Positions 43,508 through 64,000 of a stretch of DNA of 64,000 nucleotides are shown piece by piece. The stretch lies in NCBI RefSeq assembly GCF_003991155.1, contig NZ_CP031293.1; one strand, written 5' to 3'. Below the pieces are notes generated by a model. It worked only from the letters and a program-made list of their open reading frames with translations. It searched no databases and was not told where the DNA came from. How positions within the stretch are numbered: position 1 is the stretch's first letter; every line of letters begins with the position of its first letter. Made by a program: the position numbers and the translations under genes. The stretch comes from Escherichia coli. Lineage in GTDB: Bacteria; Pseudomonadota; Gammaproteobacteria; Enterobacterales; Enterobacteriaceae.

Positions 43508-43587
43508 CTTAATGCCTCTTAAATTAAAAGGCCGCCATGGGGATAGCGGCCATGTTTATTACCTGGAGAAACTTGAAATTTTATTTA

Positions 43588-46079: not shown

Positions 46080-46210
46080 CCCGACTCCTTTTTTGTATAG
46101 ATAAACCATCAGCTGATAGTTTACCTGAAGAATATAGAGAAGTACTTACTTAACATTTTCCCATTTGGTACTATCTAACCCCTTTTCACTATTAAGAAGT
46201 AATGCCTACT

Positions 46211-48244
46211 ATGACTCAAGTCGCGAAGAAAATTCTGGTGACGTGCGCACTGCCGTACGCTAACGGCTCAATCCACCTCGGCCATATGCTGGAGCACATC
46301 CAGGCTGATGTCTGGGTCCGTTACCAGCGAATGCGCGGCCACGAGGTCAACTTCATCTGCGCCGACGATGCCCACGGCACACCGATCATGCTGAAAGCTC
46401 AGCAGCTCGGTATCACCCCGGAGCAGATGATTGGCGAAATGAGTCAGGAGCATCAGACTGATTTCGCAGGCTTTAACATCAGCTATGACAACTATCACTC
46501 GACGCACAGCGAAGAGAACCGCCAGTTGTCAGAACTTATCTACTCTCGCCTGAAAGAAAACGGTTTTATTAAAAACCGCACTATTTCTCAGCTGTACGAT
46601 CCGGAAAAAGGCATGTTCCTGCCGGACCGTTTTGTGAAAGGCACCTGCCCGAAATGTAAATCCCCGGATCAATACGGCGATAACTGCGAAGTCTGCGGCG
46701 CGACCTACAGCCCGACTGAATTGATCGAGCCGAAATCGGTGGTTTCTGGCGCTACGCCGGTAATGCGTGATTCTGAACACTTCTTCTTTGATCTGCCCTC
46801 TTTCAGCGAAATGTTGCAGGCATGGACCCGCAGCGGTGCGTTGCAGGAGCAGGTGGCAAATAAAATGCAGGAGTGGTTTGAATCCGGCCTGCAACAGTGG
46901 GATATCTCCCGCGACGCCCCTTATTTCGGTTTTGAAATTCCGAACGCGCCGGGCAAATATTTCTATGTCTGGCTGGACGCACCGATTGGCTATATGGGCT
47001 CTTTCAAGAATCTGTGTGATAAGCGCGGCGACAGCGTAAGCTTCGATGAATACTGGAAGAAAGATTCCACTGCCGAGCTGTATCACTTCATCGGTAAAGA
47101 TATCGTTTACTTCCACAGCCTGTTCTGGCCAGCAATGCTGGAAGGCAGCAACTTCCGCAAGCCGACCAACCTGTTTGTTCATGGCTATGTGACGGTGAAC
47201 GGCGCGAAGATGTCTAAGTCTCGCGGTACCTTTATTAAGGCCAGCACCTGGCTGAATCATTTTGACGCCGACAGCCTGCGTTACTACTACACTGCGAAAC
47301 TCTCTTCGCGCATTGATGATATCGATCTCAACCTGGAAGATTTCGTTCAGCGCGTGAATGCCGATATCGTTAACAAAGTGGTTAACCTGGCCTCCCGTAA
47401 TGCAGGCTTTATCAACAAACGTTTTGACGGCGTGCTGGCAAGCGAACTGGCTGACCCGCAGTTGTACAAAACCTTCACTGATGCCGCTGAAGTGATTGGT
47501 GAAGCGTGGGAAAGCCGCGAATTTGGTAAAGCAGTGCGCGAAATCATGGCGCTGGCTGATCTGGCTAACCGCTATGTCGATGAACAGGCTCCGTGGGTGG
47601 TGGCAAAACAGGAAGGCCGCGATGCCGACCTGCAGGCAATTTGCTCAATGGGCATAAACCTGTTCCGCGTGCTGATGACTTACCTGAAGCCGGTACTGCC
47701 GAAACTGACCGAGCGCGCAGAAGCATTCCTCAATACAGAACTGACCTGGGATGGTATCCAGCAACCGCTGCTGGGCCACAAAGTGAATCCGTTCAAAGCG
47801 CTGTATAACCGCATCGATATGAAGCAGGTTGAAGCACTGGTGGAAGCGTCTAAAGAAGAAGTGAAAGCAGCTGCCGCGCCAGTTACTGGCCCACTGGCAG
47901 ATGATCCGATTCAGGAAACCATCACCTTTGACGACTTCGCCAAAGTTGACCTGCGCGTGGCGCTGATCGAAAACGCAGAGTTTGTTGAAGGTTCTGACAA
48001 ACTGCTGCGCCTGACGCTGGATCTCGGCGGTGAAAAACGCAATGTCTTCTCCGGCATTCGTTCTGCTTACCCGGATCCGCAGGCACTGATTGGTCGTCAC
48101 ACCATTATGGTGGCTAACCTGGCACCACGTAAAATGCGCTTCGGTATCTCCGAAGGCATGGTGATGGCTGCCGGTCCTGGCGGGAAAGATATTTTCCTGC
48201 TAAGTCCGGATGCTGGTGCTAAACCGGGTCATCAGGTGAAATAA
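46211..48244 (+). CDS. metG: Methionyl-tRNA synthetase
   Basis: Start at [10 protein letters not shown]; HLGH and KMSKS motifs, zinc knuckle CPKC...CEVC. Confidence 0.95.
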
Positions 48245-48253
48245 TCTCCTTTC

Positions 48254-48283
48254 AAGGCGCTGTATCGACAGCGCCTTTTCTTT
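48254..48283 (+). terminator. Rho-independent terminator of metG
   Basis: 10-bp stem AAGGCGCTGT/ACAGCGCCTT with ATCG loop, then TTTTCTTT. Confidence 0.75.
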
Positions 48284-48384
48284 ATAAATTCCTAAAGTTG
48301 TTTTCTTGCGATTTTGTCTCTCTCTAACCCGCATAAATACTGGTAGCATCTGCATTCAACTGGATAAAATTACAGGGATGCAGA

Positions 48385-51300
48385 ATGAGACACTTTATCT
48401 ATCAGGACAAAAAATCACATAAATTCTGGGCGGTGGAGCAGCAAGGCAACGAGTTACATATCAGTTGGGGCAAAGTCGGCACTAACGGGCAAAACCAGGT
48501 AAAAAGCTTTGCTGATGCTGCGGCAGCGGCAAAAGCGGAGCTTAAGCTGATCGCGGAGAAAACGAAAAAAGGCTATGTGGAAAATGCTTCAGCAAACGTG
48601 CATATCCCCCCCATCACCAAAGCCACTCCTGAAGTTAAAACTCCCCCTGTGAGTCAAAATAAACACCCATGGCTGGCTGATGATGCAGTCATTCCTGTCA
48701 CTGACGATATTAATCGATTTGCTTTTCCACATCGCTCTCGCCCCAGAGAGATCAATTATCTGCACAAAGATGGTCAAATATGGCAGCGCATTGCGAATAA
48801 CACCAGGGCATATGACCCCGACAATAATTACCGCTCTTATCCTGAAAACTGGCAGCAAGCGTTTGCCGAGTTACAAAGTCGAATTCTGGACAATCAACAA
48901 ACAGGGAGTGCGCAATCTGATGCGGCATTGCTCTGGAGTTTTTGGAACTCTTACTCTGCAGATGAACTGGTCGATGACTTAGTCATTCGCTGTGGTCTGG
49001 AAAGTGCCGTTGAAATCGCCCTTTTTGCTCTTCAACTCAAATATAAACCAGTAAAAGGCGCAGTCACCACCATCATTCCACCTGGTCACAAAGCAGAATC
49101 GCTACCGAGTTGGCATCAACGTCTATGTCATCATCTTTCACTCGCTTCAGAAGATGAGTGGCAACGCTGTGTGAATAAAGTGCTTACTGCTATTCCGACG
49201 CTATCCCCAGCACGGCAACCTTTTGCGGCGTTACTGCTCCCTGAACGCCCGGATATTGCCAATGCTATGGCTCTACGTTACGCAGACCAAAACGTTCCGG
49301 CGATGACCTGGTTAAGACTGGTAGTAACCGATGATGCCGCTCTGACTGCAGCAGAAAAATACGACTTCCCACCGTTATATCGTGATTTTCGCGCTTATCT
49401 GGCAATGTTGCTGGCAAATAATGGGGTGAGCGGTGTAAGCCGGATACTTACTGAGTTTGTGGAAGAGCATTCTGACAATCCCACTTATCTCTTCGAGCGC
49501 ATCAGCGAGACTGAAGATCTTGTCAAATGGTTATGGAAAACGAATCACCCGGATGCGATTCAAATTCTGATCCTCGGTGTAATTGGCAAGAAAAAGCACC
49601 TGGAATACTTAAGCAAAGCCTGTCAAAAACATCCCGCTGCGGCTATTGCCGCTTATGCAACTTTGCTGGCAATACATGAAGATGCACAGTGGCGCAACGC
49701 GCTTGTCAAACTGGTTACCGTCACGCCAGAGTTGGTATGTGACGTCATTCCCTGGGTTAATGCTAAAGCGGCAGGCATCTTATCTGAATGTCGTCCGCAG
49801 CCAGTAGCTGAAGAATGTGAATATGCCACTGTGGATATGTTGCCGGAGCTGTTTGTTTCGCCGCCCTGGATGACCAAAGAGAAAAAGAAAAATACGCCTG
49901 TGTTTGATCTTCCAGTGCTTCCAGTTCCTTCTGTTTCTGATGTCACTCCCGAGATTGCCAAAAGACTAACCCGTACTTACCTTGTCACCCGCTTCCAGCA
50001 AATAGCCCAACAGCAGGCGACAAAACAAACATTGTTTACCGACCTGCCGCCGATAAAAAAAGCAAGCTGGGAGAAACACTTAATACCGCTTACACCGGAG
50101 CAACAAATACTGTGGCATCTTGGTTTTGAAAAATGGCGGGAAAGCGGAGAAAAAATCTACGAAAAAATTCCGGCGCCACAAAGCGCCGTTGATGCCCTGC
50201 TACGCTTCGATTTTCCAGCACTCAATGCTGAATTTGTGCAATACCATAACAATGCATACAAAAGCTGGAATCTCATTGCCCTCTGTTACCTGCCTGGTCA
50301 ACAGGCCATTTCTTTTCTTAACCAGATAGTCAAAGAAGATAACTACTCTGATGAGGGAAATATTCTGGCAATTTTTGGTAGCGCCGCCATACCTGCATTT
50401 ATGACCTGCCTGCAACGTGATCCACGACGTCTGTGCTTCTTCCCCTTTTTCCTCGGTGTCAGTGACCTGGCCTTACCGATGGCGCAACAATTACAGAAAA
50501 AAATGTCTTATGACGATGCGCGAAACTGGCTGACTGATTACCCGCGCCATGCCGCCGCCGGACTGCTTCCTGTAGCACTGGGTAAACACTGCCAAAATCG
50601 GGAATATGCCCGCCAGGCGCTCCGCCTGCTGGTGAATTTAAACCAACGAGAAACGATTGAGGAAATCGCCCGGGGGTATAACCAACCAGATGTTTTAGCT
50701 GCGCTGGCAACATTGTTCGATAGCGACCCACTGGAAGAATATCCTGCAAAAATCGCCCCATTGCCCGGCTTTTATCAGTTCACCTTATGGCGCAGACCAC
50801 GGCTTAAAAGTAACAATCTGCCTCTGTCCGATGACGCTATGCGCCACCTGGGCACTATGTTGAGCTTCCCTCGCGACATTACCGCCTACGCTGGACTGGA
50901 TATCATTAGAGAAATCTTCACCCGGGAATCACTGGCTGACTTTGGCTGGGATCTCTACACGGCATGGATGGAATCTGGCGCGCCCGCAAAAGAAAACTGG
51001 GCATTTACCTCGCTGGGGATTTTAGGCAATAACGACACCGCGCGTAAACTAACCCCGCTTATCCGGGCCTGGCCGGGTGAATCCCAGCATAAACGCGCGG
51101 TTTCTGGGCTCGATGTGTTAGCCAGTATCGGTAGCGATATTGCGCTGATGCTGCTTAATGGCATTGCACAAAAAATTAAATTCAAAGCATTGCAGGAACA
51201 TGCCCGCGACAAAATCAATATGGTCGCCGAAAATCGCGGATTGACAATGGCCGAACTGGAAGACCGCCTGGCTCCAGATTTAGGGCTTGATATCAACGGC

Positions 51301-52185
51301 TCGCTGATACTTGATTTCGGCCCACGTCAATTCACCGTTGGTTTTGACGAAACCTTAAAACCTGTAGTGCGCGATGCAAACGGCAAGGTCCTGAAAGATT
51401 TACCCAAACCAAATCAGAGCGATGATAAAACACTGGCAACTGACGCCGTTAACCTCTTTAAACAATTGAAGAAAGATGTTCGTGCTATCGCCAGCCAGCA
51501 AATTACCCGTCTGGAACAGGCTATGTGCCAGCGCAGACGCTGGACGACAGAGCAGTTCCGCCTGTTCATGGTGGAGCACCCACTGGTACGTCACTTAACC
51601 CGACGACTGTTATGGGGGGTATATACTGAGGAAAACACGCTGATTGCCTGCTTCCGGGTCGCAGAAGACAGCACTTACAGCGATATGCAGGATGAGCTAT
51701 TCACGCTACCAGCAGGAAACATCGGTATTCCGCATATGCTGGAAATCCCCCCTGAATCTGCCGCTGCATTCAGGCAAATTTACGCTGATTACGAACTGCT
51801 CCCCCCCTTCCAACAGCTCGATCGTGGTAGTTATCGTCTTGCTGATAATGAACGGAATACCCACGAACTGACACGCTGGAGCGGACGCCTTTGCCAGGCA
51901 GGGCGCATTGTCGGGCTAGAGCGCCGAGGTTGGCAACGTCTGGAAGAAAGCGGCAGCGTCTATGCGATGCGCAAATCTACTCCTTATGGCGATCTCGAAC
52001 TTGAAACAGAACATTTTTCATTAATTTATGGCGAAACAGGTTATGGCGACCTGTTACCTGTTGAAAGCGTAAAAATCACCTCGCCAGATGATCGCTACGG
52101 TAAACAACCTTTACTTACTTTTTCCATGCTCGACGACATCACCGCCAGCGAGCTGATTAACGACATTGAATCATTGTTTGATTAA
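48385..52185 (+). CDS. WGR-domain / DUF4132 large protein, paralog 1 (MolR-like)
   Basis: 1266-aa ORF; N-terminal WGR-like motif (KFWAVEQQGNELHISWGKVGTNGQ); C-terminal region shared with the next two genes. Confidence 0.85.
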   Translation: MRHFIYQDKKSHKFWAVEQQGNELHISWGKVGTNGQNQVKSFADAAAAAKAELKLIAEKTKKGYVENASANVHIPPITKATPEVKTPPVSQNKHPWLADDAVIPVTDDINRFAFPHRSRPREINYLHKDGQIWQRIANNTRAYDPDNNYRSYPENWQQAFAELQSRILDNQQTGSAQSDAALLWSFWNSYSADELVDDLVIRCGLESAVEIALFALQLKYKPVKGAVTTIIPPGHKAESLPSWHQRLCHHLSLASEDEWQRCVNKVLTAIPTLSPARQPFAALLLPERPDIANAMALRYADQNVPAMTWLRLVVTDDAALTAAEKYDFPPLYRDFRAYLAMLLANNGVSGVSRILTEFVEEHSDNPTYLFERISETEDLVKWLWKTNHPDAIQILILGVIGKKKHLEYLSKACQKHPAAAIAAYATLLAIHEDAQWRNALVKLVTVTPELVCDVIPWVNAKAAGILSECRPQPVAEECEYATVDMLPELFVSPPWMTKEKKKNTPVFDLPVLPVPSVSDVTPEIAKRLTRTYLVTRFQQIAQQQATKQTLFTDLPPIKKASWEKHLIPLTPEQQILWHLGFEKWRESGEKIYEKIPAPQSAVDALLRFDFPALNAEFVQYHNNAYKSWNLIALCYLPGQQAISFLNQIVKEDNYSDEGNILAIFGSAAIPAFMTCLQRDPRRLCFFPFFLGVSDLALPMAQQLQKKMSYDDARNWLTDYPRHAAAGLLPVALGKHCQNREYARQALRLLVNLNQRETIEEIARGYNQPDVLAALATLFDSDPLEEYPAKIAPLPGFYQFTLWRRPRLKSNNLPLSDDAMRHLGTMLSFPRDITAYAGLDIIREIFTRESLADFGWDLYTAWMESGAPAKENWAFTSLGILGNNDTARKLTPLIRAWPGESQHKRAVSGLDVLASIGSDIALMLLNGIAQKIKFKALQEHARDKINMVAENRGLTMAELEDRLAPDLGLDINGSLILDFGPRQFTVGFDETLKPVVRDANGKVLKDLPKPNQSDDKTLATDAVNLFKQLKKDVRAIASQQITRLEQAMCQRRRWTTEQFRLFMVEHPLVRHLTRRLLWGVYTEENTLIACFRVAEDSTYSDMQDELFTLPAGNIGIPHMLEIPPESAAAFRQIYADYELLPPFQQLDRGSYRLADNERNTHELTRWSGRLCQAGRIVGLERRGWQRLEESGSVYAMRKSTPYGDLELETEHFSLIYGETGYGDLLPVESVKITSPDDRYGKQPLLTFSMLDDITASELINDIESLFD

Positions 52186-52197
52186 AAGGATTTAGCA

Positions 52198-55100
52198 ATG
52201 AAAACCTATATTTATCAGGACGAAAAATCACATAAATTCTGGGCAGTGGAGCAACAGGGAAACGAGCTGCATATTAGTTGGGGCAAAGTCAGTACCAACG
52301 GGCAAAGCCAGGTAAAAAGCTTTGCTGATGCTGCGGCGGCGGAAAAAGCGGAACTGAGGCTGATTGCGGAGAAGATGAAGAAGGGGTATGTGGAGCAAGC
52401 GAAGGATAATTCTTTGCAACCTTCCCAAACGGTAACGGATTCTCTCAAGGTAGCGGCCTTATCCACCATTATTCAGGAACAACCCTTTTGCGTAGCAGAA
52501 GCCCGTGTGGCTGACAAAAATACAGATGATGTTTTACCGTGGCTGGCGAAAGATATTGCTGTCGTTTTTCCGCCCGAAGTTGTACACACCACGTTAAGCC
52601 ATCGCCGCTTTCCCGGAGTTCCTGTTCAGCAAGCAGACAACTTGACCCAGTTACGTCGCTTAGCCTGTAGCGTGTCGCAACGGGATAATAAAACAGCCAC
52701 ATTTGACTTCAGCGCCTGTTCTTTAGTATGGCAAAACACCGTCGCCCAGGCGATCAGTCAGATCGACTGCCTGAAAACAACACAGTTACCATCACCAGTA
52801 ATGGCTGTACTCACGGCACTTGAAATGAAATGCACAAGATATAAAGTGCGTGAGGATGTTATGGATCAGATCATTCAGGAAGGCGGTCTGGAATATGCTA
52901 CTGATGTAATAATACACCTTCAACAGATTGATATTGAATGGAATTATGCGAATAATATCATTATTATTCTGCCGTCTGGCATTGCACCTGATAACTTGCA
53001 GCAATATTCCAGTTTTGAATTACGCCTACGGAAACATTTATCACTGGCGGAAGAGTCTCTCTGGCAAAAATGTGCACAAAAACTTATTGCCGCAATTCCA
53101 CATATTCCAGAATGGCGGCAACCATTAATTGCTTTGTTATTACCCGAAAAACCAGAAATTGCACATGAAATTGCCCAGCGTCTACTGGGGAAAAAAAAAT
53201 TACCCTCGCTTGAGTGGCTAAAAATAGTGGCGACTGATGAGCACATTCTTGCCTCATTAGAAAAATATCACGAGCCATATGCCATTTTTGATGATTACTA
53301 TTGTGGTGCGATATGGTCAGCCACCGTATTACAGGAGCAAGGTGTTGCAGCCCTGCCCCGATTTGCTCCCTATGCCGCAAGTGACTACTGCGCCGATGTG
53401 TTGCGTCATATCAATCATCCGTTCGCATTAACACTGCTTATACGTGTAGCCGGGCATACTAAACGCTGTCACGATCGAATGACGAAAGCCTGCGCTGCGT
53501 TCCCACACGCAGCACTGGCAGCACTGGCGGAACTTCTAGTGCAAAAAGAAGAGAATAGTTGGCGCATTATGCTAATGACGATGCTTATCTCGCAACCAGC
53601 ACTGGCAGAACAGGTCATTCCCTGGCTTTCGACACCCGCAGCTGCAGTGCTGAAATCATGCCAGCAACAACTGACACAGCCATCAAACCATGCCAGCACC
53701 GATCTACTGCCGGCCATAGTAGTCTCCCCACCATGGCTTTCGAAAAAGAAAAAATCGTCGATTCCGGTGCTTGATTTAGCACCATTAGGCATTGAGCCAA
53801 TCAGTTATCTGACAGAAGAAATCAGTAATCAACTTTTGGCGAAATATATCTGGTATTCAAAACACATCACGGTTAGTCATGAAGAAAGTACTGCCAATCT
53901 GTTGGCAAGGATGGGTTTTCAACGACGGATCGCTGGTACATATATTAAAGCTCCCGAAGCGGTAGTTGAGGCATGGCTAAATGAAGATTATTCAACCTTA
54001 ATAAGTGAATTTAAGGTGTTTCATTCACCTACCGGGCATTATTGGCATTTGGGGATTTTGACAACATTGCCGCTGGAGAAAGCAATAAGAGCATGGAATG
54101 CCCTTACTCTATCTCCGCATACCGATACCGAATACGCCATGTTACATTTTGGACTCAAAGGATTACCTGGGTTAGTAAACTCACTTGCACGTTATCCACA
54201 GGAAGCCTTGCCCATAACGAATTACTTCGCAGCGAGTGAGCTGGCTCCTGCCGTCGCCCGCGCCTTCAACAAACTCAAAACCCTACGACAAGACGCCCGC
54301 ACCTGGCTGCTGAAATACCCGGAACACGCCATTACCGGCCTGCTACCTTCGGCGCTCGGCAAAGCCGGTGAAGCACAGGATAACGCCCGCGCTGCCTTGC
54401 GTATGCTTATCGAAAACGATCATCAGCCATTACTGCAAGAAATCGCCCGGCGTTATAACCAGCCGGAAGTAACAGATGCGGTGAACGCTATGCTTGCGCT
54501 CGATCCCTTAGATAATCACCCGACAAAAATCCCCACTCTTCCGGCCTTTTATCAGCCATCGATCTGGACCCGCCCGGTATTAAAAGCAAATGCCCAATCA
54601 CTGCCAGATAACGCCCTCCTCCACCTCGGTGAAATGCTCCGCTTCCCTCAGGAAGAGGCTCTGTATCCGGGATTATTGCAGGTGAAAGATGCCTGTACCG
54701 CCGACTCACTGGCTGAATTTGCCTGGGATCTGTTTACCGCCTGGCAGACCGCTGGCGCACCGTCGAAAGAAAGTTGGGCGTTCACTGCGTTAGGCGTTCT
54801 CGGTAACGATGACACCGCCCGCAAACTGACGCCATTAATCCGCGCCTGGCCTGGCGAATCTCAGCATAAACGTGCCACCGTTGGGTTGGATATTCTCGCT
54901 GCTATCGGCAGCGATATCGCCCTGATGCAGCTTAACGGCATCGCCCAGAAACTGAAATTCAAAGCATTACAGGAGCGAGCAAAAGAAAAAATTGCCGACA
55001 TTGCCGAAAGCCGCGAACTCACAGTGGCAGAACTTGAAGATCGGTTAGCACCGGATCTCGGTCTGGATGATAACGGTTCGCTGCTGCTGGATTTCGGGCC

Positions 55101-55992
55101 ACGGCAGTTCACCGTCAGCTTTGATGAAACCTTAAAACCGTTTGTGCGTGATGCTTCCGGCAGCCGCCTGAAAGACTTGCCTAAACCGAACAAAAGCGAT
55201 GATGAAACCCAAGCGAACGATGCAGTTAACCGCTACAAACTGTTGAAAAAAGATGCGCGTACCGTTGCCGCCCAGCAGGTAGCAAGGCTGGAATCCGCCA
55301 TGTGCCTACGCCGCCGCTGGTCGCCGGAAAACTTCCAGCTATTCCTGGTTGAGCATCCGCTGGTTCGCCACTTAACCCGCCGTCTGATTTGGGGCGTTTA
55401 TAGCACCGAAAACGAGCTACTGGCCTGTTTCCGGGTGGCAGAAGATAACAGCTACAGCACCGCTGACGATGATCTTTTCACCCTGCCGGAAGGCGATATC
55501 TCTATTGGTATTCCTCACGTTCTGGAAATATCACCGACGGATGCCGCCGCCTTTGGTCAGCTTTTTGCCGACTACGAACTTTTACCGCCGTTCCGTCAGC
55601 TCGACCGCAACAGTTATGCCCTGACTGAAGTCGAACGCAACGCCAGCGAACTAACCCGCTGGGCAGGCAGAAAATGCCCGAGCGGTCGGGTTATGGGGCT
55701 GTCGAATAAAGGCTGGGTGCGTGGTGAACCGCAGGACGGTGGCTGGATCGGCTGGATGATCAAACCTCTGGGCCGCTGGTCATTAATCATGGAAATCGAT
55801 GAAGGATTTGCAGTTGGTATGTCGCCAGCCGAACTCAGTGCCGAGCAACTCTTAAGCAAGCTGTGGCTATGGGAAGGCAAAGCAGAAAGCTATGGCTGGG
55901 GGAGTCATTCAACACAGGAAGCGCAGTTCTCCGCACTCGATGACATCACCGCCAGCGAGTTGATTAACGATATTGAAGCCCTGTTTGAATAA
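52198..55992 (+). CDS. molR: WGR-domain / DUF4132 large protein, paralog 2 (MolR-like; length matches my recollection of intact MolR)
   Basis: 1264-aa ORF; N-terminal ~60 aa and C-terminal ~450 aa highly similar to paralog 1, centre divergent; which copy is the K-12 molR orthologue is uncertain. Confidence 0.8.
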   Translation: MKTYIYQDEKSHKFWAVEQQGNELHISWGKVSTNGQSQVKSFADAAAAEKAELRLIAEKMKKGYVEQAKDNSLQPSQTVTDSLKVAALSTIIQEQPFCVAEARVADKNTDDVLPWLAKDIAVVFPPEVVHTTLSHRRFPGVPVQQADNLTQLRRLACSVSQRDNKTATFDFSACSLVWQNTVAQAISQIDCLKTTQLPSPVMAVLTALEMKCTRYKVREDVMDQIIQEGGLEYATDVIIHLQQIDIEWNYANNIIIILPSGIAPDNLQQYSSFELRLRKHLSLAEESLWQKCAQKLIAAIPHIPEWRQPLIALLLPEKPEIAHEIAQRLLGKKKLPSLEWLKIVATDEHILASLEKYHEPYAIFDDYYCGAIWSATVLQEQGVAALPRFAPYAASDYCADVLRHINHPFALTLLIRVAGHTKRCHDRMTKACAAFPHAALAALAELLVQKEENSWRIMLMTMLISQPALAEQVIPWLSTPAAAVLKSCQQQLTQPSNHASTDLLPAIVVSPPWLSKKKKSSIPVLDLAPLGIEPISYLTEEISNQLLAKYIWYSKHITVSHEESTANLLARMGFQRRIAGTYIKAPEAVVEAWLNEDYSTLISEFKVFHSPTGHYWHLGILTTLPLEKAIRAWNALTLSPHTDTEYAMLHFGLKGLPGLVNSLARYPQEALPITNYFAASELAPAVARAFNKLKTLRQDARTWLLKYPEHAITGLLPSALGKAGEAQDNARAALRMLIENDHQPLLQEIARRYNQPEVTDAVNAMLALDPLDNHPTKIPTLPAFYQPSIWTRPVLKANAQSLPDNALLHLGEMLRFPQEEALYPGLLQVKDACTADSLAEFAWDLFTAWQTAGAPSKESWAFTALGVLGNDDTARKLTPLIRAWPGESQHKRATVGLDILAAIGSDIALMQLNGIAQKLKFKALQERAKEKIADIAESRELTVAELEDRLAPDLGLDDNGSLLLDFGPRQFTVSFDETLKPFVRDASGSRLKDLPKPNKSDDETQANDAVNRYKLLKKDARTVAAQQVARLESAMCLRRRWSPENFQLFLVEHPLVRHLTRRLIWGVYSTENELLACFRVAEDNSYSTADDDLFTLPEGDISIGIPHVLEISPTDAAAFGQLFADYELLPPFRQLDRNSYALTEVERNASELTRWAGRKCPSGRVMGLSNKGWVRGEPQDGGWIGWMIKPLGRWSLIMEIDEGFAVGMSPAELSAEQLLSKLWLWEGKAESYGWGSHSTQEAQFSALDDITASELINDIEALFE

Positions 55993-56001
55993 GGAAAGAA
56001 C

Positions 56002-59000
56002 ATGGACAAGGAATTACCGTGGCTGGCGGATAACGCCCAACTGGAACTGAAATATAAAAAAGGCAAAACACCACTCAGCCATCGCAATTGGCCGGGAGAA
56101 CCGGTGCCTGTTATCACTGAAAGCCTCATCCAGACACTGGGTGATAAATTGCTACACATTGCTGAGAAGAAAAAAAACATTGTCTGGCGTTATGAAAATT
56201 TTTCACTGGAATGGCAGTCCGCCATCACGCAGGCCATCAACTTGATCGGCGAGCACAAACCCTCAGTTCCGGCCCGGACAATGGCGGCGCTAGCCTGTAT
56301 CGCGCAAAATGACAGCCAACAGTTGCTCGACGAAATCGTCCAACAAGAGGGACTGGAATATGCGACTGAGGTGGTGATTGCACGCCAGTTTATTGCACAG
56401 TGTTATGAGAGTGATCCTCTGCTAGTGACATTGCAGTATCAGAACGAGGATTATGGCTATGGTTATCGCTCAGAAACCTATAACGAATTCGATCTCCGAC
56501 TGCGTAAGCATCTCTCTCTGGCAGAGGAAAGCTGCTGGCAGCGTTGCGCCGACAAACTCATTGCCGCACTGCCAGGACTACCCCAAGTTCGCCGTCCTTT
56601 TATTGCGCTGATCCTCCCGGAAAAACCAGAAATCGCCAATGAGTTGGTAGGCCTTGAATGCCCGTGGACTCATTTTCATTCTAAGGAGTGGTTAAAAGTT
56701 GTTGCTACTGACCACAGGGCAGTGGGAAAACTCGAACGCTACTGGAGCCAGGATATATTTAGCGATCGCGAAGCCAGCTACATGTCGCATGAAAACCACT
56801 TCGGCTACGCGGCCTGCGCCGCCCTTTTGCGCGAACAAGGAATTGCAGCCGTTCCACGCCTCGCGATGTATGCCCATAAAGAAGATTGCGGCAGTCTGCT
56901 GGTACAAATTAACCATCCGCAGGTCATCCGTACCCTGCTGTTAGTTGCTGATAAAAATAAACCCAGCCTGCAACGTGTGGCTAAATACAGTAAAAACTTC
57001 CCCCATGCGACGCTTGCCGCACTGGCAGAGCTTCTGGCGTTAAAAGAACCGCCTGCACGCCCTGGTTATCCAATCATCGAAGACAAAAAGCTGCCTGCAC
57101 AGCAAAAAGCTCGAGATGAATACTGGCGTACGCTGTTACAAACGCTGATGGCATCGCAGCCACAACTGGCAGAAGAGGTGATGCCGTGGTTAAGTACTCA
57201 AGCCCAGGCAGTGCTGAATAGTTATTTATCGGCACCGCCCAAAACGGTTATTGATAGCACCGATAACATCCAAATGCCTGAAATCCTCGTTTCACCACCG
57301 TGGCGTAGTAAGAAAAAAATGACAGTTCCACGTCTTGATTTGGCACCGTTCGAATTAACGCCGCAAGTTTACTGGCAACCAGGCGAACGAGAGAGGCTTG
57401 CCGCCACTGAGTCTGCCCGTTATTTCAGCACGGAATCTCTTGCGGAACGCATGGAACAAAAAAGTGGACGAGTTGTATTACAGGAGCTGGGTTTTGGAGA
57501 TGATGTATGGCTGTTTTTGAATTATATACTCCCCGGAAAACTGGATGCTGCACGCAATTCACTCATTGTTCAGTGGCATTACTACCCAGGGCGGGTTGAA
57601 GAGATCATGAATGGCTGGAGCTCCCCGGAAGCTCAATTAGCAGAACAGGCGCTTCGCAACGGTCACGTAGAAGTGTTAATTAACATATGGGAAAATGACA
57701 GCTACTCACGCTATCGTCGGGAAAAGAGTATCTGGAACCTGTATTTATTGGCGCAGTTGCCGCGTGAGATGGCTTTGACTTTCTGGCTACGTATCAATGA
57801 GAAAAAGCATCTGTCTGCGGGTGAGGACTATTTTCTCAGTATCTTCGGATTGGATGCTCTACCAGGTCTGCTGTTGGCTTTTTCACATCGTCCAAAAGAA
57901 ACATTTCCATTAATTTTAAATTTCGGCGCAACAGAACTGGCCCTGCCCGTTGCCCGCGTCTGGCGACGTTTCGCGGCGCAGCGTGATCTGGCTCGCCAGT
58001 GGATTTTACATTGGCCGGAACATACAGCTACTGCACTTATCCCTCTTGTCTTCACCAAATCCAGCGATAATAGCGAAGCTGCATTACTTGCCCTGCGTTT
58101 ACTTTACGAACAGGGACATGGCGAATTACTGCAAACCGTGGCAAACCGCTGGCAGCATACAGATGTATGGCCTGCCCTGGAGCAATTACTTAAACAGGGT
58201 CCAATGGACATTTACCCGGCACGCATTCCCAAAGCCCCTGATTTCTGGCATCCGACAATGTGGTCCAGACCGAGACTTATCACGAATAATCAGCCTGTTA
58301 CCGATGATGCTCTGGAAATTATCGGCGACATGCTGCGCTTTACCCAGGGCGGACGTTTTTATTGCGGGCTGGAACAACTGAAAACGTTCTGCCAGCCACA
58401 AACGCTGGCAGCTTTTGCCTGGGATCTCTTCACCGCGTGGCAACAAGTTGGCGCCCCCGCAAAAGACAACTGGGCATTTCTGGCGTTAAGTCTCTTCGGT
58501 GACGAAAGCACGGCTCGGGATCTGACAACACAGATCCTCGCCTGGCCACAGGAAGGCAAATCTGCCCGTGCCGTCAGTGGCCTGAACATACTTACTCAGA
58601 TGAATAATGATATGGCGCTGATACAGCTGCATCATATATCGCAACGGGCGAAATCCCGCCCCTTACGTGATAACGCGGCGGAATTTCTTCAGGTGGTCGC
58701 AGAAAATCGTAGGCTAAGCCAGGAACAGTTAGCGGACAGATTAGTCCCAACACTGGGTCTTGATGATCCGCAGGCGTTGAGTTTTGATTTTGGTCCACGG
58801 CAATTTACCGTTCGCTTTGATGAAAACCTTAACCCGGTTATCTTTGATCAGCAAAACGTTCGCCAGAAAAGCGTTCCCCGGTTGCGCGCCGATGACGATC
58901 AACTGAAAGCGCCCGAGGCACTGGCCCGACTAAAAGGGCTAAAAAAAGATGCGACTCAGGTGAGCAAAAACCTGCTCCCGCGTCTTGAAACGGCCCTACG

Positions 59001-59634
59001 CACCACCCGACGCTGGTCGCTGGCAGATTTTCATACTCTGTTTGTTAATCATCCCTTTACCCGCCTGGTTACTCAGCGATTAATATGGGGCGTGTATCCG
59101 GCAAATGAACCGCGTCGTTTACTCAACGCCTTTCGTGTGGCCGCAGAGGGGGAGTTCTGCAATGCACAAGATGAGCCCATTGACCTGCCTGCGGATGCTT
59201 TGATTGGCATTGCCCACCCGTTAGAAATGACAGCAGAAATGCGCAGTGAATTTGCACAGCTTTTTGCCGATTACGAAATTATGCCGCCTTTTCGCCAGTT
59301 GACGAGGCGCACAGTGCTGCTCACGCCTGACGAGTCAGCCAGTAACAGCCTGACTCGCTGGGAAGGTAAATCCGCTACCGTTGGGCAACTTATGGGAATG
59401 CGATACAAAGGCTGGGAGTCAGGCTATGAGGACGCATTTGTCTATGACCTGGGCGAGTACCGGCTGGTCCTTAAGTTTTCATCCGGTTTTAACCACTACA
59501 ATGTTGATAGCAAAGCGCTAATGAGCTTCCGTTCTCTTCATGTATACCGTGACAATAAATCTGTCACTTTTGCCGAACTTGATGTGTTTGATTTGAGTGA
59601 AGCGTTAAGCGCACCCGACGTCATTTTCCATTAA
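56002..59634 (+). CDS. yehI: DUF4132-family large protein YehI (no WGR domain)
   Basis: 1210-aa ORF sharing central and C-terminal blocks with the two upstream paralogs. Confidence 0.85.
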   Translation: MDKELPWLADNAQLELKYKKGKTPLSHRNWPGEPVPVITESLIQTLGDKLLHIAEKKKNIVWRYENFSLEWQSAITQAINLIGEHKPSVPARTMAALACIAQNDSQQLLDEIVQQEGLEYATEVVIARQFIAQCYESDPLLVTLQYQNEDYGYGYRSETYNEFDLRLRKHLSLAEESCWQRCADKLIAALPGLPQVRRPFIALILPEKPEIANELVGLECPWTHFHSKEWLKVVATDHRAVGKLERYWSQDIFSDREASYMSHENHFGYAACAALLREQGIAAVPRLAMYAHKEDCGSLLVQINHPQVIRTLLLVADKNKPSLQRVAKYSKNFPHATLAALAELLALKEPPARPGYPIIEDKKLPAQQKARDEYWRTLLQTLMASQPQLAEEVMPWLSTQAQAVLNSYLSAPPKTVIDSTDNIQMPEILVSPPWRSKKKMTVPRLDLAPFELTPQVYWQPGERERLAATESARYFSTESLAERMEQKSGRVVLQELGFGDDVWLFLNYILPGKLDAARNSLIVQWHYYPGRVEEIMNGWSSPEAQLAEQALRNGHVEVLINIWENDSYSRYRREKSIWNLYLLAQLPREMALTFWLRINEKKHLSAGEDYFLSIFGLDALPGLLLAFSHRPKETFPLILNFGATELALPVARVWRRFAAQRDLARQWILHWPEHTATALIPLVFTKSSDNSEAALLALRLLYEQGHGELLQTVANRWQHTDVWPALEQLLKQGPMDIYPARIPKAPDFWHPTMWSRPRLITNNQPVTDDALEIIGDMLRFTQGGRFYCGLEQLKTFCQPQTLAAFAWDLFTAWQQVGAPAKDNWAFLALSLFGDESTARDLTTQILAWPQEGKSARAVSGLNILTQMNNDMALIQLHHISQRAKSRPLRDNAAEFLQVVAENRRLSQEQLADRLVPTLGLDDPQALSFDFGPRQFTVRFDENLNPVIFDQQNVRQKSVPRLRADDDQLKAPEALARLKGLKKDATQVSKNLLPRLETALRTTRRWSLADFHTLFVNHPFTRLVTQRLIWGVYPANEPRRLLNAFRVAAEGEFCNAQDEPIDLPADALIGIAHPLEMTAEMRSEFAQLFADYEIMPPFRQLTRRTVLLTPDESASNSLTRWEGKSATVGQLMGMRYKGWESGYEDAFVYDLGEYRLVLKFSSGFNHYNVDSKALMSFRSLHVYRDNKSVTFAELDVFDLSEALSAPDVIFH

Positions 59635-59694
59635 ACCACAGCGGGCAGTGATGCGACTGCCCGTTATTAACACGACCTGCCACCGGGAAAAGCG

Positions 59695-60015
59695 ATGATC
59701 GTGCAAAAAGAGCTGGTCGCTATTTATGATTATGAAGTCCCTGTACCTGAAGATCCGTTTTCCTTCAGACTTGAGATCCATAAATGCTCTGAATTATTTA
59801 CAGGTTCCATCTACCGGCTGGAGCGATTCCGGCTACATCCAACATTTCATCAACGTGATCGAGAGGATATCGACCCGCTAATAAATGATGCGTTGATTTA
59901 TATAAGAGATGAGTTTATTGATGAGCGAAAATTACGGGGCGAATCACCAGAAATGGTAATAGCCATTTTTAATCGTGAACTACAGAATATATTCAACCAA
60001 GAAATAGAAAAATAG
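59695..60015 (+). CDS. yehK: Small protein YehK
   Basis: 106-aa ORF at conserved position. Confidence 0.75.
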   Translation: MIVQKELVAIYDYEVPVPEDPFSFRLEIHKCSELFTGSIYRLERFRLHPTFHQRDREDIDPLINDALIYIRDEFIDERKLRGESPEMVIAIFNRELQNIFNQEIEK

Positions 60016-60068
60016 CTTTATTAAAGAGGGAGACGGTATTCCCCCTTAGATGCGTTTCAATTTGCCCG

Positions 60069-60158
60069 TTACTTCAACAAATCAATCAACCGTAACAGAG
60101 CCACTAATAACTCCAGTACGGCAATGAGCACAGTTAACTTTTGTGTCAGCGTGTCCAT
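60069..60158 (-). CDS. zorO: Type I toxin, ZorO-like small hydrophobic peptide (29 aa)
   Basis: Minus-strand ORF MDTLTQKLTVLIAVLELLVALLRLIDLLK with TAAGGAGA SD; matches my memory of ZorO; approximate coordinates. Confidence 0.6.
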   Translation of the reverse strand: MDTLTQKLTVLIAVLELLVALLRLIDLLK

Positions 60159-60384
60159 CCGCTCTCCTTATTAAGGAGCGCAACACCAGCACCTTACCCT
60201 TACACTGCCTGTCGATACTGGTTTACGTATGTTGGACCACGATGTTGCACTCCGGATCAGGGCACTACCTGCGGCACCACCCGTCCGGTAGCCATGACTT
60301 GAAATGGGTTCGATCCGGCGCAACGTCCCAACAGTCAGGATTATAAATCTCATTATCTTAATTGCAACGGGGTCCACCGATGGT

Positions 60385-60469
60385 TATAATTCGTTCGTTG
60401 GAACACGATGTTGCACAGGCTGCGGCGTTGGGCCTGAAAATAGTAAATAAAAGAACCTGCCTCACCAGC
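60385..60469 (+). ncRNA. orzO: Putative OrzO-like antisense sRNA antitoxin (boundaries uncertain)
   Basis: Plus-strand CACGATGTTGCAC can pair with the zorO 5' UTR (same 13-mer at ~60237); ends in hairpin ACCTGC-CTCACCA-GCAGGT plus T7. Confidence 0.4.
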
Positions 60470-60590
60470 AGGTTTTTTTATTTACTGTGATCTGCTTTCC
60501 AGATATTTTCCGCTCAAACAACTAATGCGCCAAACATTTATTGCGCGTAAAATATCGTTTATTTCATTAATACATTTCAGGGATGAATAT

Positions 60591-61679
60591 ATGTCACCGC
60601 AGAATAATCATCTGCAGCGTCCGCCTGCCGCTGTGTTATACGCCGATGAACTGGCAAAATTAAAACAAAATGATCACGCACCTTGCCCGCCCGGTTGGCA
60701 GTTAAGTTTGCCTGCGGCCCGTGCTTTTATCCTTGGCGACGAAGCGCAAAATATTAGCCGTAAAGTCGTGATCAGTCCCTCCGCTGTCGAACGCATGTTA
60801 GTCACTCTCGCTACCGGGCGCGGTTTGATGTTGGTGGGGGAACCTGGCACCGCAAAATCGCTCCTGTCTGAATTACTGGCAACCGCTATTAGCGGCGATG
60901 CCGGGTTAACCATCCAGGGCGGCGCATCTACCACCGAAGATCAAATCAAGTACGGCTGGAACTACGCTCTGCTTATCAATCATGGTCCATCAACGGAAGC
61001 GCTGGTCCCTGCCCCGCTTTACCAGGGAATGCGCGACGGCAAAATCGTCCGTTTTGAAGAAATAACGCGTACACCGCTGGAAGTGCAGGACTGTCTGTTA
61101 GGTATGCTTTCTGACAGGGTGATGACGGTGCCGGAACTCACCGGTGAAGCCAGTCAGCTCTATGCGCGGGAAGGCTTTAATATTATTGCCACTGCCAATA
61201 CCCGCGATCGCGGCGTCAATGAAATGAGTGCTGCGCTAAAGCGTCGTTTCGATTTTGAAACTGTCTTTCCGATTATGGATTTCGCTCAGGAGCTGGAGCT
61301 TGTCGCCAGTGCTTCGGCGCGTTTGCTGGCCCATAGCGGTATTCCGCATAAAGTGCCTGACGCGGTACTGGAGTTACTGGTCCGCACCTTCCGCGATCTG
61401 CGTGCCAACGGCGAAAAGAAAACGTCAATGGATACACTAACAGCGATTATGTCCACCGCTGAAGCCGTGAACGTGGCCCACGCTGTGGGCGTCCGCGCCT
61501 GGTTTTTAGCGAATCGCGCAGGTGAGCCAGCCGATCTGGTGGACTGTATTGCCGGAACCATCGTCAAAGATAACGAAGAAGATCGCGCTCGTCTGCGCCG
61601 TTACTTCGAACAGCGAGTCGCCACACATAAAGAAGCTCACTGGCAGGCTTATTATCAAGCCCGCCACCGCCTGCCGTGA
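60591..61679 (+). CDS. yehL: MoxR-family AAA+ ATPase YehL
   Basis: Start at MSPQNNHLQ inside the 60525 ORF; Walker A GEPGTAKS. Confidence 0.85.
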   Translation: MSPQNNHLQRPPAAVLYADELAKLKQNDHAPCPPGWQLSLPAARAFILGDEAQNISRKVVISPSAVERMLVTLATGRGLMLVGEPGTAKSLLSELLATAISGDAGLTIQGGASTTEDQIKYGWNYALLINHGPSTEALVPAPLYQGMRDGKIVRFEEITRTPLEVQDCLLGMLSDRVMTVPELTGEASQLYAREGFNIIATANTRDRGVNEMSAALKRRFDFETVFPIMDFAQELELVASASARLLAHSGIPHKVPDAVLELLVRTFRDLRANGEKKTSMDTLTAIMSTAEAVNVAHAVGVRAWFLANRAGEPADLVDCIAGTIVKDNEEDRARLRRYFEQRVATHKEAHWQAYYQARHRLP

Positions 61680-61689
61680 GGAAAGATGC

Positions 61690-63969
61690 ATGAGCGAGCC
61701 GTTAATTGTCGGCATCCGGCATCATAGCCCGGCCTGCGCCCGGCTGGTGAAATCGTTAATCGAAAGCCAGCGGCCACGATACGTGTTGATTGAAGGCCCG
61801 GCTGATTTTAATGACCGGGTAGACGAACTGTTTTTAGCCCACCAGCTTCCGGTAGCTATTTACAGTTATTGCCAGTATCAGGACGGTACGGCCCCCGGGC
61901 GCGGTGCCTGGACGCCATTTGCTGAATTTTCACCGGAGTGGCAGGCGCTACAAGCCGCACGTCGTATTCAGGCACAAACTTACTTCATCGATTTACCTTG
62001 CTGGGCGCAGAGTGAAGAAGATGACGATTCGCCTGATACGCAAGAGGAAAGCCAGACCTTGCTGCTGCGTGCCACCCGCATGGATAACAGCGACACCCTG
62101 TGGGATCACTTGTTCGAAGATGAAAGCCAGCAAACTGCATTACCCTCTGCGCTGGCGCACTATTTTGCACAACTGCGGGGCGATTCCCCCGGAGATGCTC
62201 TCAATCGTCAGCGCGAAGCCTTTATGGCCCGCTGGATTGCATGGGCGATGCAGCAAAACAATGGCGACGTGTTAGTCGTCTGCGGCGGCTGGCATGCTCC
62301 GGCACTGGCAAAGATGTGGCGCGAATACACGCAGGAAATTAACACGCCGGAATTGCCCTCGCTGGCAGATGTCGTTACAGGTTGTTATCTCACCCCCTAC
62401 AGTGAAAAGCGCCTTGATGTGCTGGCAGGATACCTTTCCGGTATGCCTGCCCCGGTCTGGCAAAACTGGTGCTGGCGGTGGGGCTTGCAGCAGGCAGGTG
62501 AACAACTGCTGAAAACGGTTCTTACCCGTTTGCGCCAGCACCACTTGCCTGCTTCAACAGCGGATATGGCTGCCGCTCATCTGCATGCGATGGCACTGGC
62601 ACAGTTGCGCGGTCATACACTACCGTTACGCACTGACTGGCTGGATGCCATAGCAGGCTCGCTGATTAAAGAAGCCCTGAATGCGCCGTTGCCGTGGAGC
62701 TATCGCGGCGTTATTCATCCCGATACCGATCCGATTCTGCTAACGTTGATAGACACATTAGCGGGTGACGGATTCGGTAAACTTGCCCCTTCTACGCCAC
62801 AACCGCCTCTGCCAAAAGATGTCACCTGCGAACTGGAACGTACCGCAATCTCTCTTCCGGCGGAGCTTACCTTAAATCGCTTTAACCCCAATGGACTAGC
62901 GCAAAGTCAGGTGTTACATCGGCTGGCAATACTGGAGATCCCAGGGATTGTACGCCAGCAGGGAAGCACACTGACACTTGCAGGCAACGGTGAAGAACGC
63001 TGGAAATTAACCCGCCCGCTTAGCCAGCATGCGGCATTGATTGAGGCCGCCTGCTTTGGTGCAACACTCCAGGAAGCCGCACGCCATAAATTAGAAGCCG
63101 ATATGCTGGACGCGGGTGGAATCGGCAGTATCACCACATGTCTTAGCCAGGCGGCGTTAGCGGGTCTGGCGTCCTTCAGTCAGCAATTACTGGAACAACT
63201 CACATTATTAATCGCCCAAGAAAATCAGTTTGCCGAAATGGGCCAGGCGCTGGAAGTGCTTTACGCCTTGTGGCAGCTCGATGAAATCAGCGGTATGCAA
63301 GGCGCGCAGATATTACAAACGACGTTATGCGCGGCTATCGATCGCACGCTGTGGCTGTGTGAATCTAACGGCAGACCGGATGAAAAGGAGTTTCACGCTC
63401 ACCTGCATAGCTGGCAAGCGCTTTGCCATATCCTGCGCGATCTACATAGCGGCGTTAATTTACCCGGCGTTTCTCTTTCTGCGGCGGTAGCCTTACTGGA
63501 GCGACGCAGTCAGGCGATTCATGCCCCGGCGCTGGATCGCGGCGCGGCTCTTGGCGCACTAATGCGTCTGGAACATCCCAACGCCAGTGCCGAAGCGGCG
63601 CTGACGATGCTGGCGCAGTTATCCCCGGCACAATCCGGCGAGGCGCTGCACGGTTTGCTGGCGCTGGCCCGCCATCAACTGGCCTGTCAGCTGGCATTTA
63701 TCGCCGGTTTCAGTAGTCATTTAAATCAACTGAGTGACGACGATTTTATTAACGCCCTGCCCGATTTACGCGCGGCGATGGCCTGGCTACCACCACGAGA
63801 ACGCGGGACGCTGGCGCATCAGGTGCTTGAGCATTACCAGCTCGCACAGCTTCCCATTTCAGCGCTGCAAATGCCGTTGCATTGTCCACCGCAAGCCATT
63901 GCACATCATCAACAACTCGAACAGCAGGCACTGGCATCGCTGCAACACTGGGGAGTTTTCCATGTCTGA
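61690..63969 (+). CDS. yehM: Uncharacterised protein YehM
   Basis: Start at MSEPLIVGI (in frame within the 61522 ORF, just after the yehL stop); 759 aa. Confidence 0.8.
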   Translation: MSEPLIVGIRHHSPACARLVKSLIESQRPRYVLIEGPADFNDRVDELFLAHQLPVAIYSYCQYQDGTAPGRGAWTPFAEFSPEWQALQAARRIQAQTYFIDLPCWAQSEEDDDSPDTQEESQTLLLRATRMDNSDTLWDHLFEDESQQTALPSALAHYFAQLRGDSPGDALNRQREAFMARWIAWAMQQNNGDVLVVCGGWHAPALAKMWREYTQEINTPELPSLADVVTGCYLTPYSEKRLDVLAGYLSGMPAPVWQNWCWRWGLQQAGEQLLKTVLTRLRQHHLPASTADMAAAHLHAMALAQLRGHTLPLRTDWLDAIAGSLIKEALNAPLPWSYRGVIHPDTDPILLTLIDTLAGDGFGKLAPSTPQPPLPKDVTCELERTAISLPAELTLNRFNPNGLAQSQVLHRLAILEIPGIVRQQGSTLTLAGNGEERWKLTRPLSQHAALIEAACFGATLQEAARHKLEADMLDAGGIGSITTCLSQAALAGLASFSQQLLEQLTLLIAQENQFAEMGQALEVLYALWQLDEISGMQGAQILQTTLCAAIDRTLWLCESNGRPDEKEFHAHLHSWQALCHILRDLHSGVNLPGVSLSAAVALLERRSQAIHAPALDRGAALGALMRLEHPNASAEAALTMLAQLSPAQSGEALHGLLALARHQLACQLAFIAGFSSHLNQLSDDDFINALPDLRAAMAWLPPRERGTLAHQVLEHYQLAQLPISALQMPLHCPPQAIAHHQQLEQQALASLQHWGVFHV

Positions 63970-64000
63970 ACTGAACGATCTTCTGACCACCTGTGAGCTA
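63962..64000 (+). CDS. yehP: YehP (VWA-domain protein), 5' end only
   Basis: ATG overlapping the yehM stop (ATGTCTGA); frame open to window end; identity from synteny only. Confidence 0.5.
   Translation, partial: MSELNDLLTTCEL

Follow-up and report, generated by a model that had tools for sequence, protein, structure and literature searches.

Why should an Escherichia coli chromosome carry three giant genes of one family in a row, directly ahead of genes for a MoxR-type ATPase and its partners, and what could these genes do together? The question is raised by a 64,000-nucleotide stretch of E. coli contig NZ_CP031293.1 (RefSeq assembly GCF_003991155.1), below called the window, in which three DUF4132 genes, here named copies A, B and C, precede yehK, yehL, yehM and yehP (Table 1). 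Copy C is yehI and copy B corresponds to molR; together with yehLMPQ these are long-standing E. coli orphan genes. An earlier note on this DNA, made from the sequence alone, held the function of the cluster to be not established, and the literature searched indeed contained no functional study of DUF4132, DUF5682 or yehLMPQ.

The open reading frame (ORF) coordinates agree with the earlier note in that ORFs of 1266, 1264 and 1210 amino acids lie head-to-tail, all on the plus strand. The gaps, given there as 10-12 bp, measure 12 bp between A and B and 9 bp between B and C, and the AAGGA Shine-Dalgarno sequence ascribed to all three genes is present upstream of B and C, while A has AGGGA. The position upstream of yehL-yehM-yehP was read correctly as to order, with only the very beginning of yehP lying inside the window. 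The terminator hairpin of metG is located at 48254-48277, and no strong terminator-like site was found between A, B and C. E. coli 2016C-3878 matches the window with 100% identity, and none of its nine genes from A to yehQ is flagged as a pseudogene in RefSeq.

Two parts of our answer are well supported, namely that the giants are linked in function to the YehLMPQ core, and that a giant is built from a C-terminal module that stays constant, a middle that varies and, in most cases, a WGR head. On these we build a tentative reading, plausible to us but short of probable, in which A, B and C would be alternative large subunits (specificity adaptors or sensors) of a conserved MoxR-VWA machine for the surveillance of foreign or damaged macromolecules. 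As the genes are annotated everywhere, the presence of three copies is in itself no novelty. The literature searched had nothing on the locus as a system, on cassette polymorphism inside the species with trans-specific alleles, or on a TraB/ChaN-like domain in YehM.

Linkage of the giants to a conserved core

A phmmer search with residues 700-1266 of copy A against 1.84 billion cluster representatives returned 6145 representatives at E ≤1e-3, and 2641 at ≤1e-30. The ~560-residue module aligns as a whole with 40-55% identity and is always C-terminal in its host proteins, which range from 600 to 1780 residues. WGR is found at the N-terminus in 17 of 19 long family members, and one member has a histidine-kinase module. 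In a metagenomic protein of 1776 amino acids (L010 6883-12213), HisKA and HATPase_c are fused to WGR and DUF4132; its gene adjoins those of a response regulator and a MoxR ATPase.

The surroundings of the family were surveyed by tblastn with the E. coli Yeh proteins, using one genome per species and covering at least 67 loci outside Escherichia; the survey listing does not contain E. coli itself and carries no inference on absence from Salmonella or other genera. Of the 51 informative loci among the matches listed, 45 have homologues of YehL, YehM, YehP and YehQ immediately after the DUF4132 gene or genes or, occasionally, immediately before them. The other six, which are unlinked, are extra copies from Massilia species in which a linked locus exists as well. 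Linked loci hold one (31 loci), two (6), three (7) or four (1) DUF4132 modules among the matches listed, these counts being lower bounds. They occur in Gamma- and Betaproteobacteria, among them Klebsiella spallanzanii (three copies), Erwinia, Serratia, Variovorax, Massilia, Burkholderia and Xanthomonadales, and further in Myxococcota, Trichlorobacter (Geobacterales), Holophagales, and Mycolicibacterium and Propionibacteriaceae (Actinobacteria). In several phyla, the operon thus has the same form, with one to four WGR-DUF4132 genes followed by genes for a MoxR ATPase, a DUF5682 protein, a VWA protein and a SWIM protein. Identity across phyla is 56-90% for YehL and 47-79% for YehP. A YehK homologue was not found by tblastn among the 67 non-Escherichia loci listed, and yehK may or may not be part of the Yeh system.

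In four Massilia loci (L036, L038, L041 and L052), five to six tandem WGR-DUF4132 genes occupy 20 kb and no Yeh core is seen there; each of these genomes has a core-linked array as well.

The core proteins

In YehL, the Walker A motif GEPGTAKS and the motif VRFEE are invariant in 21 sequences. Homologues with 63-65% identity carry Pfam PF07728 (AAA_5), and one orthologue is named “MoxR family ATPase” in RefSeq. Encoded beside a VWA protein, YehL has the hallmarks of a MoxR AAA+ ATPase by these motifs and by the Pfam domain of its homologues; its NCBIfam matches, to GvpN and MadB, are weak. YehP has a metal-ion-dependent adhesion site (MIDAS), with DQSGS at residues 223-227, GGGT and SDF conserved in 22 sequences, and a YehP homologue carries PF05762/PF13519. 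YehQ contains two SWIM CxCxnCxH motifs, CSCGANGMCRH and CDCIEGTLCEH, which the Pfam SWIM profile matches only weakly (E 0.0049 and 0.24). Overall, the NCBIfam scan gave WGR-level matches plus weak AAA or VWA ones only.

The structure model of YehM (predicted local distance difference test, pLDDT, 86.9) has a HEAT-like C-terminal half and an N-terminal domain whose predicted fold matches TraB, ChaN, EreC and RRSP. Residues R10, H11, E35, D101 and H202 are invariant in 24 sequences, which is compatible with a hydrolase. Judging from the modelled fold, YehM may be a hydrolase. A PDB search with a YehM profile produced chance coiled-coil matches only.

Characterised MoxR-VWA pairs mostly mature or activate enzymes, and by analogy the Yeh proteins could form a cofactor or metallo-centre maturation machine, comparable to CobN-CobS-CobT, BchH-BchI-BchD, CoxD/E, NorQ/D and CbbQ/O. 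The giants of ~1250 residues would then be its large working subunits or clients, the motor would insert or remodel a cofactor, and the name molR would stand for a genuine link to molybdate. In size, the giants resemble CobN and BchH, the YehP VWA domain weakly matches a cobaltochelatase subunit model, and ChaN, a relative of the YehM fold, binds haem. The locus is moreover chromosomal, syntenic and not mobile, and the historical molR annotation points to molybdate utilisation. However, A, B and C have no Pfam match to a CobN or Mg-chelatase domain, and cassettes with 22-60% identity within one species, two to four tandem paralogues and frequent pseudogenes (see below) are unexpected for a housekeeping factor. 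In addition, molR is a pseudogene in K-12, where the molybdate phenotype was described, and the molybdenum genes of Deinococcus radiodurans were not co-regulated with the DUF4132 gene in a study of DdrO (PMC8533742). We consider a maturation role unlikely; if it were true, the old molybdate link would be revived.

Architecture of the giants

The Pfam WGR domain (PF05406) is matched in A and B with E-values of 1.8e-18 and 1.8e-15, and C has no Pfam match to it. DUF4132 (PF13569) is matched in all three, at residues 1000-1183 of A (E 5.5e-51), in B (E 2.3e-50) and in C (E 4.5e-47). The conserved C-terminal unit, with its ~560 residues, is three times the length of the Pfam domain.

In a three-way alignment, overall protein identity is 43.5% between A and B, 27.7% between A and C, and 33.3% between B and C. 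Identity between A and B is 86% over the first 50 residues, 10-40% in the centre and 62-84% over residues ~840-1180, after which a paralogue-specific block of ~40 residues (14% identity) is followed by a conserved tail. The earlier note had therefore rightly described a shared N-terminal WGR module in the first two proteins, a divergent centre and a third protein without WGR. It also placed a highly similar region at the C-terminus, which is there but extends over ~350-400 residues instead of ~450. At the DNA level, A and B are recognisable as repeats in three stretches alone: 48369-48581 versus 52181-52394 (84.6%), 50926-51879 versus 54703-55662 (70%), and the last 57 bp of each gene (87.7%).

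An AlphaFold2 model of residues 700-1266 of A, built from a 33-sequence alignment (pLDDT 88.3), predicts a helical repeat (model residues 10-262), a long helix, an alpha/beta part holding DUF4132 and a conserved terminal helix. In the terminal helix of the module, S556 is nearly invariant (at least 90%) and E557 is invariant, in both alignments. Foldseek gave no significant match to the model, and no solved relative of the alpha/beta part was found by it; the PDB sequence search with A matched the WGR domain of 2ra8 (residues 3-69) only. A sub-domain of the DUF4132 module resembled the small uncharacterised protein YugN (PDB 2r5x; Foldseek probability 0.98, template modelling score 0.59 on the target, E 0.35).

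Hypervariable cassettes and selection

When six E. coli strains were aligned from metG to yehM, metG was 95-100% identical, and the giants and yeh core were mostly 90-97% identical. Within B, identity over nucleotides 52500-54300 of the window falls to 46-64% against the alleles of strains 86-24, AVS0542, 18SZHZ655Rt and TB06052. The corresponding proteins share 92-100% identity at residues 1-60 and 700-1264, and 22-60% at residues 61-700. Copy A has a variable block at residues ~540-700 with 33-60% identity between E. coli strains, and copy C has milder variable blocks. The B cassette type shared by the window and K-12 was found in 3993 genomes, a second class in 679 and a third in 154, the remainder being different again. 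The B centre of E. albertii and E. fergusonii has 80-81% identity to the second E. coli class but only 55-73% to the B of the window. Allele classes are thus shared across species.

The ratio of nonsynonymous to synonymous substitution rates (dN/dS) is 0.14-0.29 in the giants, 0.01 in metG, 0.02-0.07 in yehL and 0.09-0.15 in yehM, and the giants are thus under constraint. At synonymous sites, the giants have diverged two to several times as much as metG, to the point of saturation in the cassettes, which suggests that the alleles are old. Recent positive selection on the cassettes was also considered and was set aside as not demonstrable, since synonymous sites are saturated. The picture that emerges from these comparisons would be one of old, maintained or exchanged alleles under purifying selection, rather than of recent runaway positive selection.

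The diversity might alternatively stem from relaxed constraint and recombination with other Escherichia, the locus being a decaying remnant without present function in E. coli. At least one gene is flagged as a pseudogene in seven of 12 annotated E. coli loci, and the flagged genes vary by strain, comprising molR/B, A, yehI, yehK, yehL, yehM, yehP and yehQ. Disruption is tolerated in K-12, O157:H7 and sublineages of sequence type 131 (ST131), and the dN/dS of the giants is above that of neighbouring genes. In ST131 sublineage L1a, a blaCTX-M-15 transposon is located in this region (PMC9334617). However, the dN/dS values of the giants, like those of yehL and yehM (0.02-0.15), still denote purifying selection, and the operon is kept in different phyla, its catalytic motifs being invariant. 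The locus is also fully intact in 2016C-3878, R1, 13C1079T and HS, and some of the frameshifts may be assembly errors. Strain 18SZHZ655Rt has no flagged gene in the stretch examined, in which yehP is cut and beyond which yehQ lies. Mere decay is, in our judgement, quite improbable.

Copy number in Escherichia

A K-12-type genome contains metG, one frameshifted DUF4132 pseudogene (molR), yehI, yehK, yehL, yehM, yehP and a yehQ pseudogene, so that the earlier note was correct in giving a frameshifted molR plus yehI as the only K-12 copies. The K-12 molR pseudogene aligns to B with 94.3% nucleotide identity, continuously from 52181 to 60014, and K-12 DNA from the promoter region through the first 200 nt can also be aligned with the sequence preceding A and with the start of A. 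Since B is the molR orthologue by this alignment, A is the extra gene, absent from K-12. The two-copy and three-copy states are one exact repeat unit apart, bounded by the WGR-coding repeat, and the first 197 nt of K-12 molR form a mosaic with equal similarity to A and B. Such a mosaic is compatible with recombination within the WGR-coding repeat.

Of 5426 complete E. coli genomes, 1643 (~30%) contain the centre specific to A, with at least 99% identity in 46 genomes, 90-95% in 897 and 80-90% in 700. The suspicion that one intact copy is additional here was thus justified, and the three-copy state is neither universal nor confined to this strain. In E. albertii, the order is A, a paralogue X, B and then a partial fourth gene C (yehI-like) at the end of the fetched stretch, and in E. 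fergusonii it is A, X and B, where the fetched stretch ends. Paralogue X, located between A and B, has 1330 amino acids in E. albertii (L079 10001-23807) and 1254 in E. fergusonii (L080 10001-21382). Its centre is only ~30% identical to any E. coli copy, and megablast did not detect it in complete E. coli genomes. Copy number in the genus Escherichia is therefore two to four.

A 2.8-kb contig (L034) from a metagenome-assembled genome labelled Collinsella sp. encodes a protein 90% identical to E. coli copy A. Most likely, this contig is E. coli contamination of the metagenome bin.

Regulation and DNA damage

A LexA-box-like site upstream of copy A (Table 1) is the sole CTG-N10-CAG with an AT-rich spacer in 46202-64000 (17.8 kb) and has one core mismatch to the CTGT-N8-ACAG operator. 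Six E. coli loci have kept the site, and its conservation in the species does not depend on copy A, which indicates that the same promoter region drives A here and molR in K-12. A review lists molR among LexA-regulated genes (PMC6590174). The molR promoter is activated by BglJ-RcsB and is not repressed by H-NS (PMC3950696). In D. radiodurans, DRA0166 (DUF4132) and DR2173 (WGR) are strongly induced on DdrO depletion (PMC8533742).

The conserved LexA-box-like site, the place of molR in the LexA regulon list and the Deinococcus induction would suit a DNA-damage machine, in which WGR and SWIM domains would direct an AAA+ unfoldase and a protease to sites of DNA damage, where they might, for instance, clear away proteins that are trapped or cross-linked. 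The functional parallel is eukaryotic Cdc48/p97 with SPRTN/Wss1. WGR is described as a DNA-binding domain, as is also established in PARP biology, and the fold predicted for YehM is common to TIKI and RRSP peptidases. However, an E. coli-type LexA box was found in none of 75 regions upstream of DUF4132 genes in other taxa. A general SOS link of the family was rejected on these grounds, and as far as upstream sequences tell, the SOS link is lineage-specific. Repair factors are also normally conserved, not cassette-polymorphic or often pseudogenised, and C and some other family members are devoid of WGR. A primary role in DNA damage thus appears unlikely to us.

A proposed surveillance machine

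The reading that we tentatively prefer, with the giants as alternative large subunits of a MoxR-VWA machine, can be laid out as follows. YehL would be the MoxR AAA+ motor and YehP, with its intact MIDAS metal site, the VWA adaptor, while YehQ would contribute two SWIM zinc fingers. YehM, which appears to join a TraB/TIKI/ChaN-fold domain, possibly a hydrolase, to a helical scaffold, is the candidate for the catalytic output. The constant ~560-residue module, with its helical repeat, DUF4132 alpha/beta part and conserved acidic C-terminal helix, would dock onto this core, and the near-invariant Ser and invariant Glu of the tail helix are a candidate MIDAS ligand. The variable region of ~630 residues, probably helical, would serve as the recognition surface, usually behind an N-terminal WGR head, a domain that elsewhere binds nucleic acids or DNA breaks. 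Tandem paralogues and old allelic cassettes would widen the recognition range of the machine, and the ATP-driven core would remodel or cleave the bound target. Such a machine could act as a conflict or stress system, apparently SOS-linked in E. coli. The linkage of the genes, their domains, the intact motifs and the way in which the alleles vary are shown; the physical complex, its docking site, the target class and the output are what we infer.

The earlier note had likened the modular divergence and the MoxR/VWA partners to a sensor/effector arrangement. This idea, still a hypothesis, is strengthened by the hypervariable centre between strains and by the cross-phylum MoxR/VWA linkage, and the note's reading of the locus is largely supported. 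Beyond it go the copy number of two to four in the genus, the inclusion of yehQ (SWIM) in the core, YehM as a possible hydrolase and the LexA-box-like site.

Several results weigh against a surveillance role. No classical effector domain (nuclease, TIR, pore) was found in the locus, the PADLOC-DB 2.0 scan of eight locus proteins at E ≤0.01 matched 0 families, and no segment with dN/dS >1 was found. The DUF4132 family had no tblastn match in 50,697 phage genomes and is rare on plasmids (33 records out of 72,556, for the most part megaplasmids or chromosomes under a wrong label). The Yeh locus itself occupies a fixed chromosomal site between housekeeping genes and is no mobile island. The lack of an E. 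coli-type LexA box in the 75 upstream regions and the pseudogene flags, which would also fit a decaying function, count on the same side.

All Yeh proteins have near-perfect, full-length matches to PHROG families 20839, 28101, 36602, 36295, 30700, 33984, 31592 and 29006. A phage origin, which such matches could suggest, was rejected on the strength of the phage-genome search, and these PHROGs probably derive from chromosomal DNA inside mis-delimited prophage predictions.

A bolder version would see a widespread surveillance or immune system, in which polymorphic WGR-helical-DUF4132 sensors hand targets to the MoxR-VWA motor, the TraB/TIKI-like YehM hydrolase and the SWIM protein, with the cassettes under balancing selection across Escherichia species. 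We find this version doubtful, and our confidence in an immune role is low because there is no mobile-element association, no known defence domain and no dN/dS >1. If a surveillance or defence machine were true, it would be a new architecture of bacterial immunity missed by present defence-finding tools.

The orphan genes now make up a defined system with testable parts: a four-gene MoxR/VWA core, the candidate hydrolase YehM, and exchangeable giants whose variable cassette would predict specificity. Whether the role is surveillance or maturation, natural intact loci (this strain, HS and R1) and natural knock-outs (K-12 and O157:H7) provide the experimental material.

Other features of the window

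Table 1. Features of the yeh region, with positions numbered from the first letter of the window
Feature	Position	Strand	Description
LexA-box-like palindrome CTGGATAAAATTACAG	48360-48375		10 bp upstream of copy A ATG
Copy A	48385-52185	+	1266 aa; WGR residues 5-69, variable region ~70-700, constant C-terminal module ~700-1266 including DUF4132
Copy B	52198-55992	+	1264 aa; intact orthologue of the K-12 molR (yehG/yehH) pseudogene; WGR 7-69, DUF4132 988-1173
Copy B centre	nt ~52500-54300	+	Hypervariable cassette, at least four allele classes in E. coli
Copy C (yehI)	56002-59634	+	1210 aa; DUF4132 module, without WGR
yehK	59695-60015	+	106 aa; from annotation; found only in Escherichia loci
zorO type I toxin ORF	60069-60158	-	29 aa, MDTLTQKLTVLIAVLELLVALLRLIDLLK; inserted between yehK and yehL
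OrzO antitoxin small RNA	60404-60479	+	Rfam RF02083 (OrzO-P), 102.8 bits versus gathering score 60
yehL	60591-61679	+	MoxR-type AAA+ ATPase, 362 aa; from annotation
yehM	61690-63969	+	DUF5682, 759 aa; predicted N-terminal TraB/ChaN/erythromycin-esterase-like domain, then predicted helical-repeat C-terminal half
yehP (VWA), first 39 nt	63962-64000	+	Rest of yehP, then yehQ (SWIM), beyond the window

The zorO-orzO pair is present in one copy, and ~285 bp here are missing from K-12. It consists of a hydrophobic toxin ORF of 29 amino acids with the OrzO small RNA on the opposite strand. The zorO location and the segment absent from K-12 are as given for O157:H7 by Fozo et al. 2010 (PMC2887945).

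At 43500-45000 of the window (the yehD-yehE fimbrial region, upstream of apbC), the GC content is 0.36-0.37, versus 0.45-0.56 in the yeh giants and core. Copies of metG with ~94% identity are found on E. coli plasmids of ~100 kb (NZ_CP025870.1 and NZ_CP081792.1); 222 plasmid places match, apparently with metG only.

Comparison with known systems

Class I chelatases (CobN-CobS-CobT and BchH-BchI-BchD) combine, like Yeh, an AAA+ motor, a VWA protein and a third subunit of ~1200-1300 residues. In contrast to them, A, B and C have no sequence or Pfam kinship to CobN/BchH, and the Yeh large subunits are multiple and polymorphic. The MoxR/VWA pairs RavA-ViaA, CbbQ-CbbO, NorQ-NorD and CoxD-CoxE likewise have a MoxR ATPase gene beside one for a VWA protein with a MIDAS. 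There is no obvious client enzyme in the Yeh locus, whose partners are instead a DUF5682 protein, a double-SWIM protein and one to four polymorphic giants.

Like the Yeh giants, NLR/STAND-type and other modular immune sensors couple a constant module for signalling or docking to a variable recognition region of repeat type, and they too have tandem paralogues and old allele classes. The giants differ from them in having no NTPase domain of their own, the ATPase being a separate MoxR protein, and in having no PADLOC match, their immune role being putative.

The MoxR-vWA “ternary” conflict systems of Kaur et al. 2020 (PMC7159879) resemble Yeh in a MoxR and vWA core with diversifying components and in their dependence on nucleoside triphosphates. 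YehL, YehM, SWIM, WGR and MolR are not mentioned in that paper (PMC7159879), Pfam identified no VMAP or listed effector domain in Yeh, and Yeh occurs in unicellular enterobacteria. In the predicted MoxR-vWA-YebA degradation system (PMC3495828), vWA is proposed to recruit, MoxR to unfold and a linked hydrolase-fold protein to act, and YehM would take the place of that hydrolase. The Yeh proteins, by comparison, appear cytoplasmic, with no membrane anchor noted, the fold of the putative hydrolase would be TraB/TIKI/ChaN-like rather than transglutaminase-like, and SWIM and DUF4132 proteins are added to the set.

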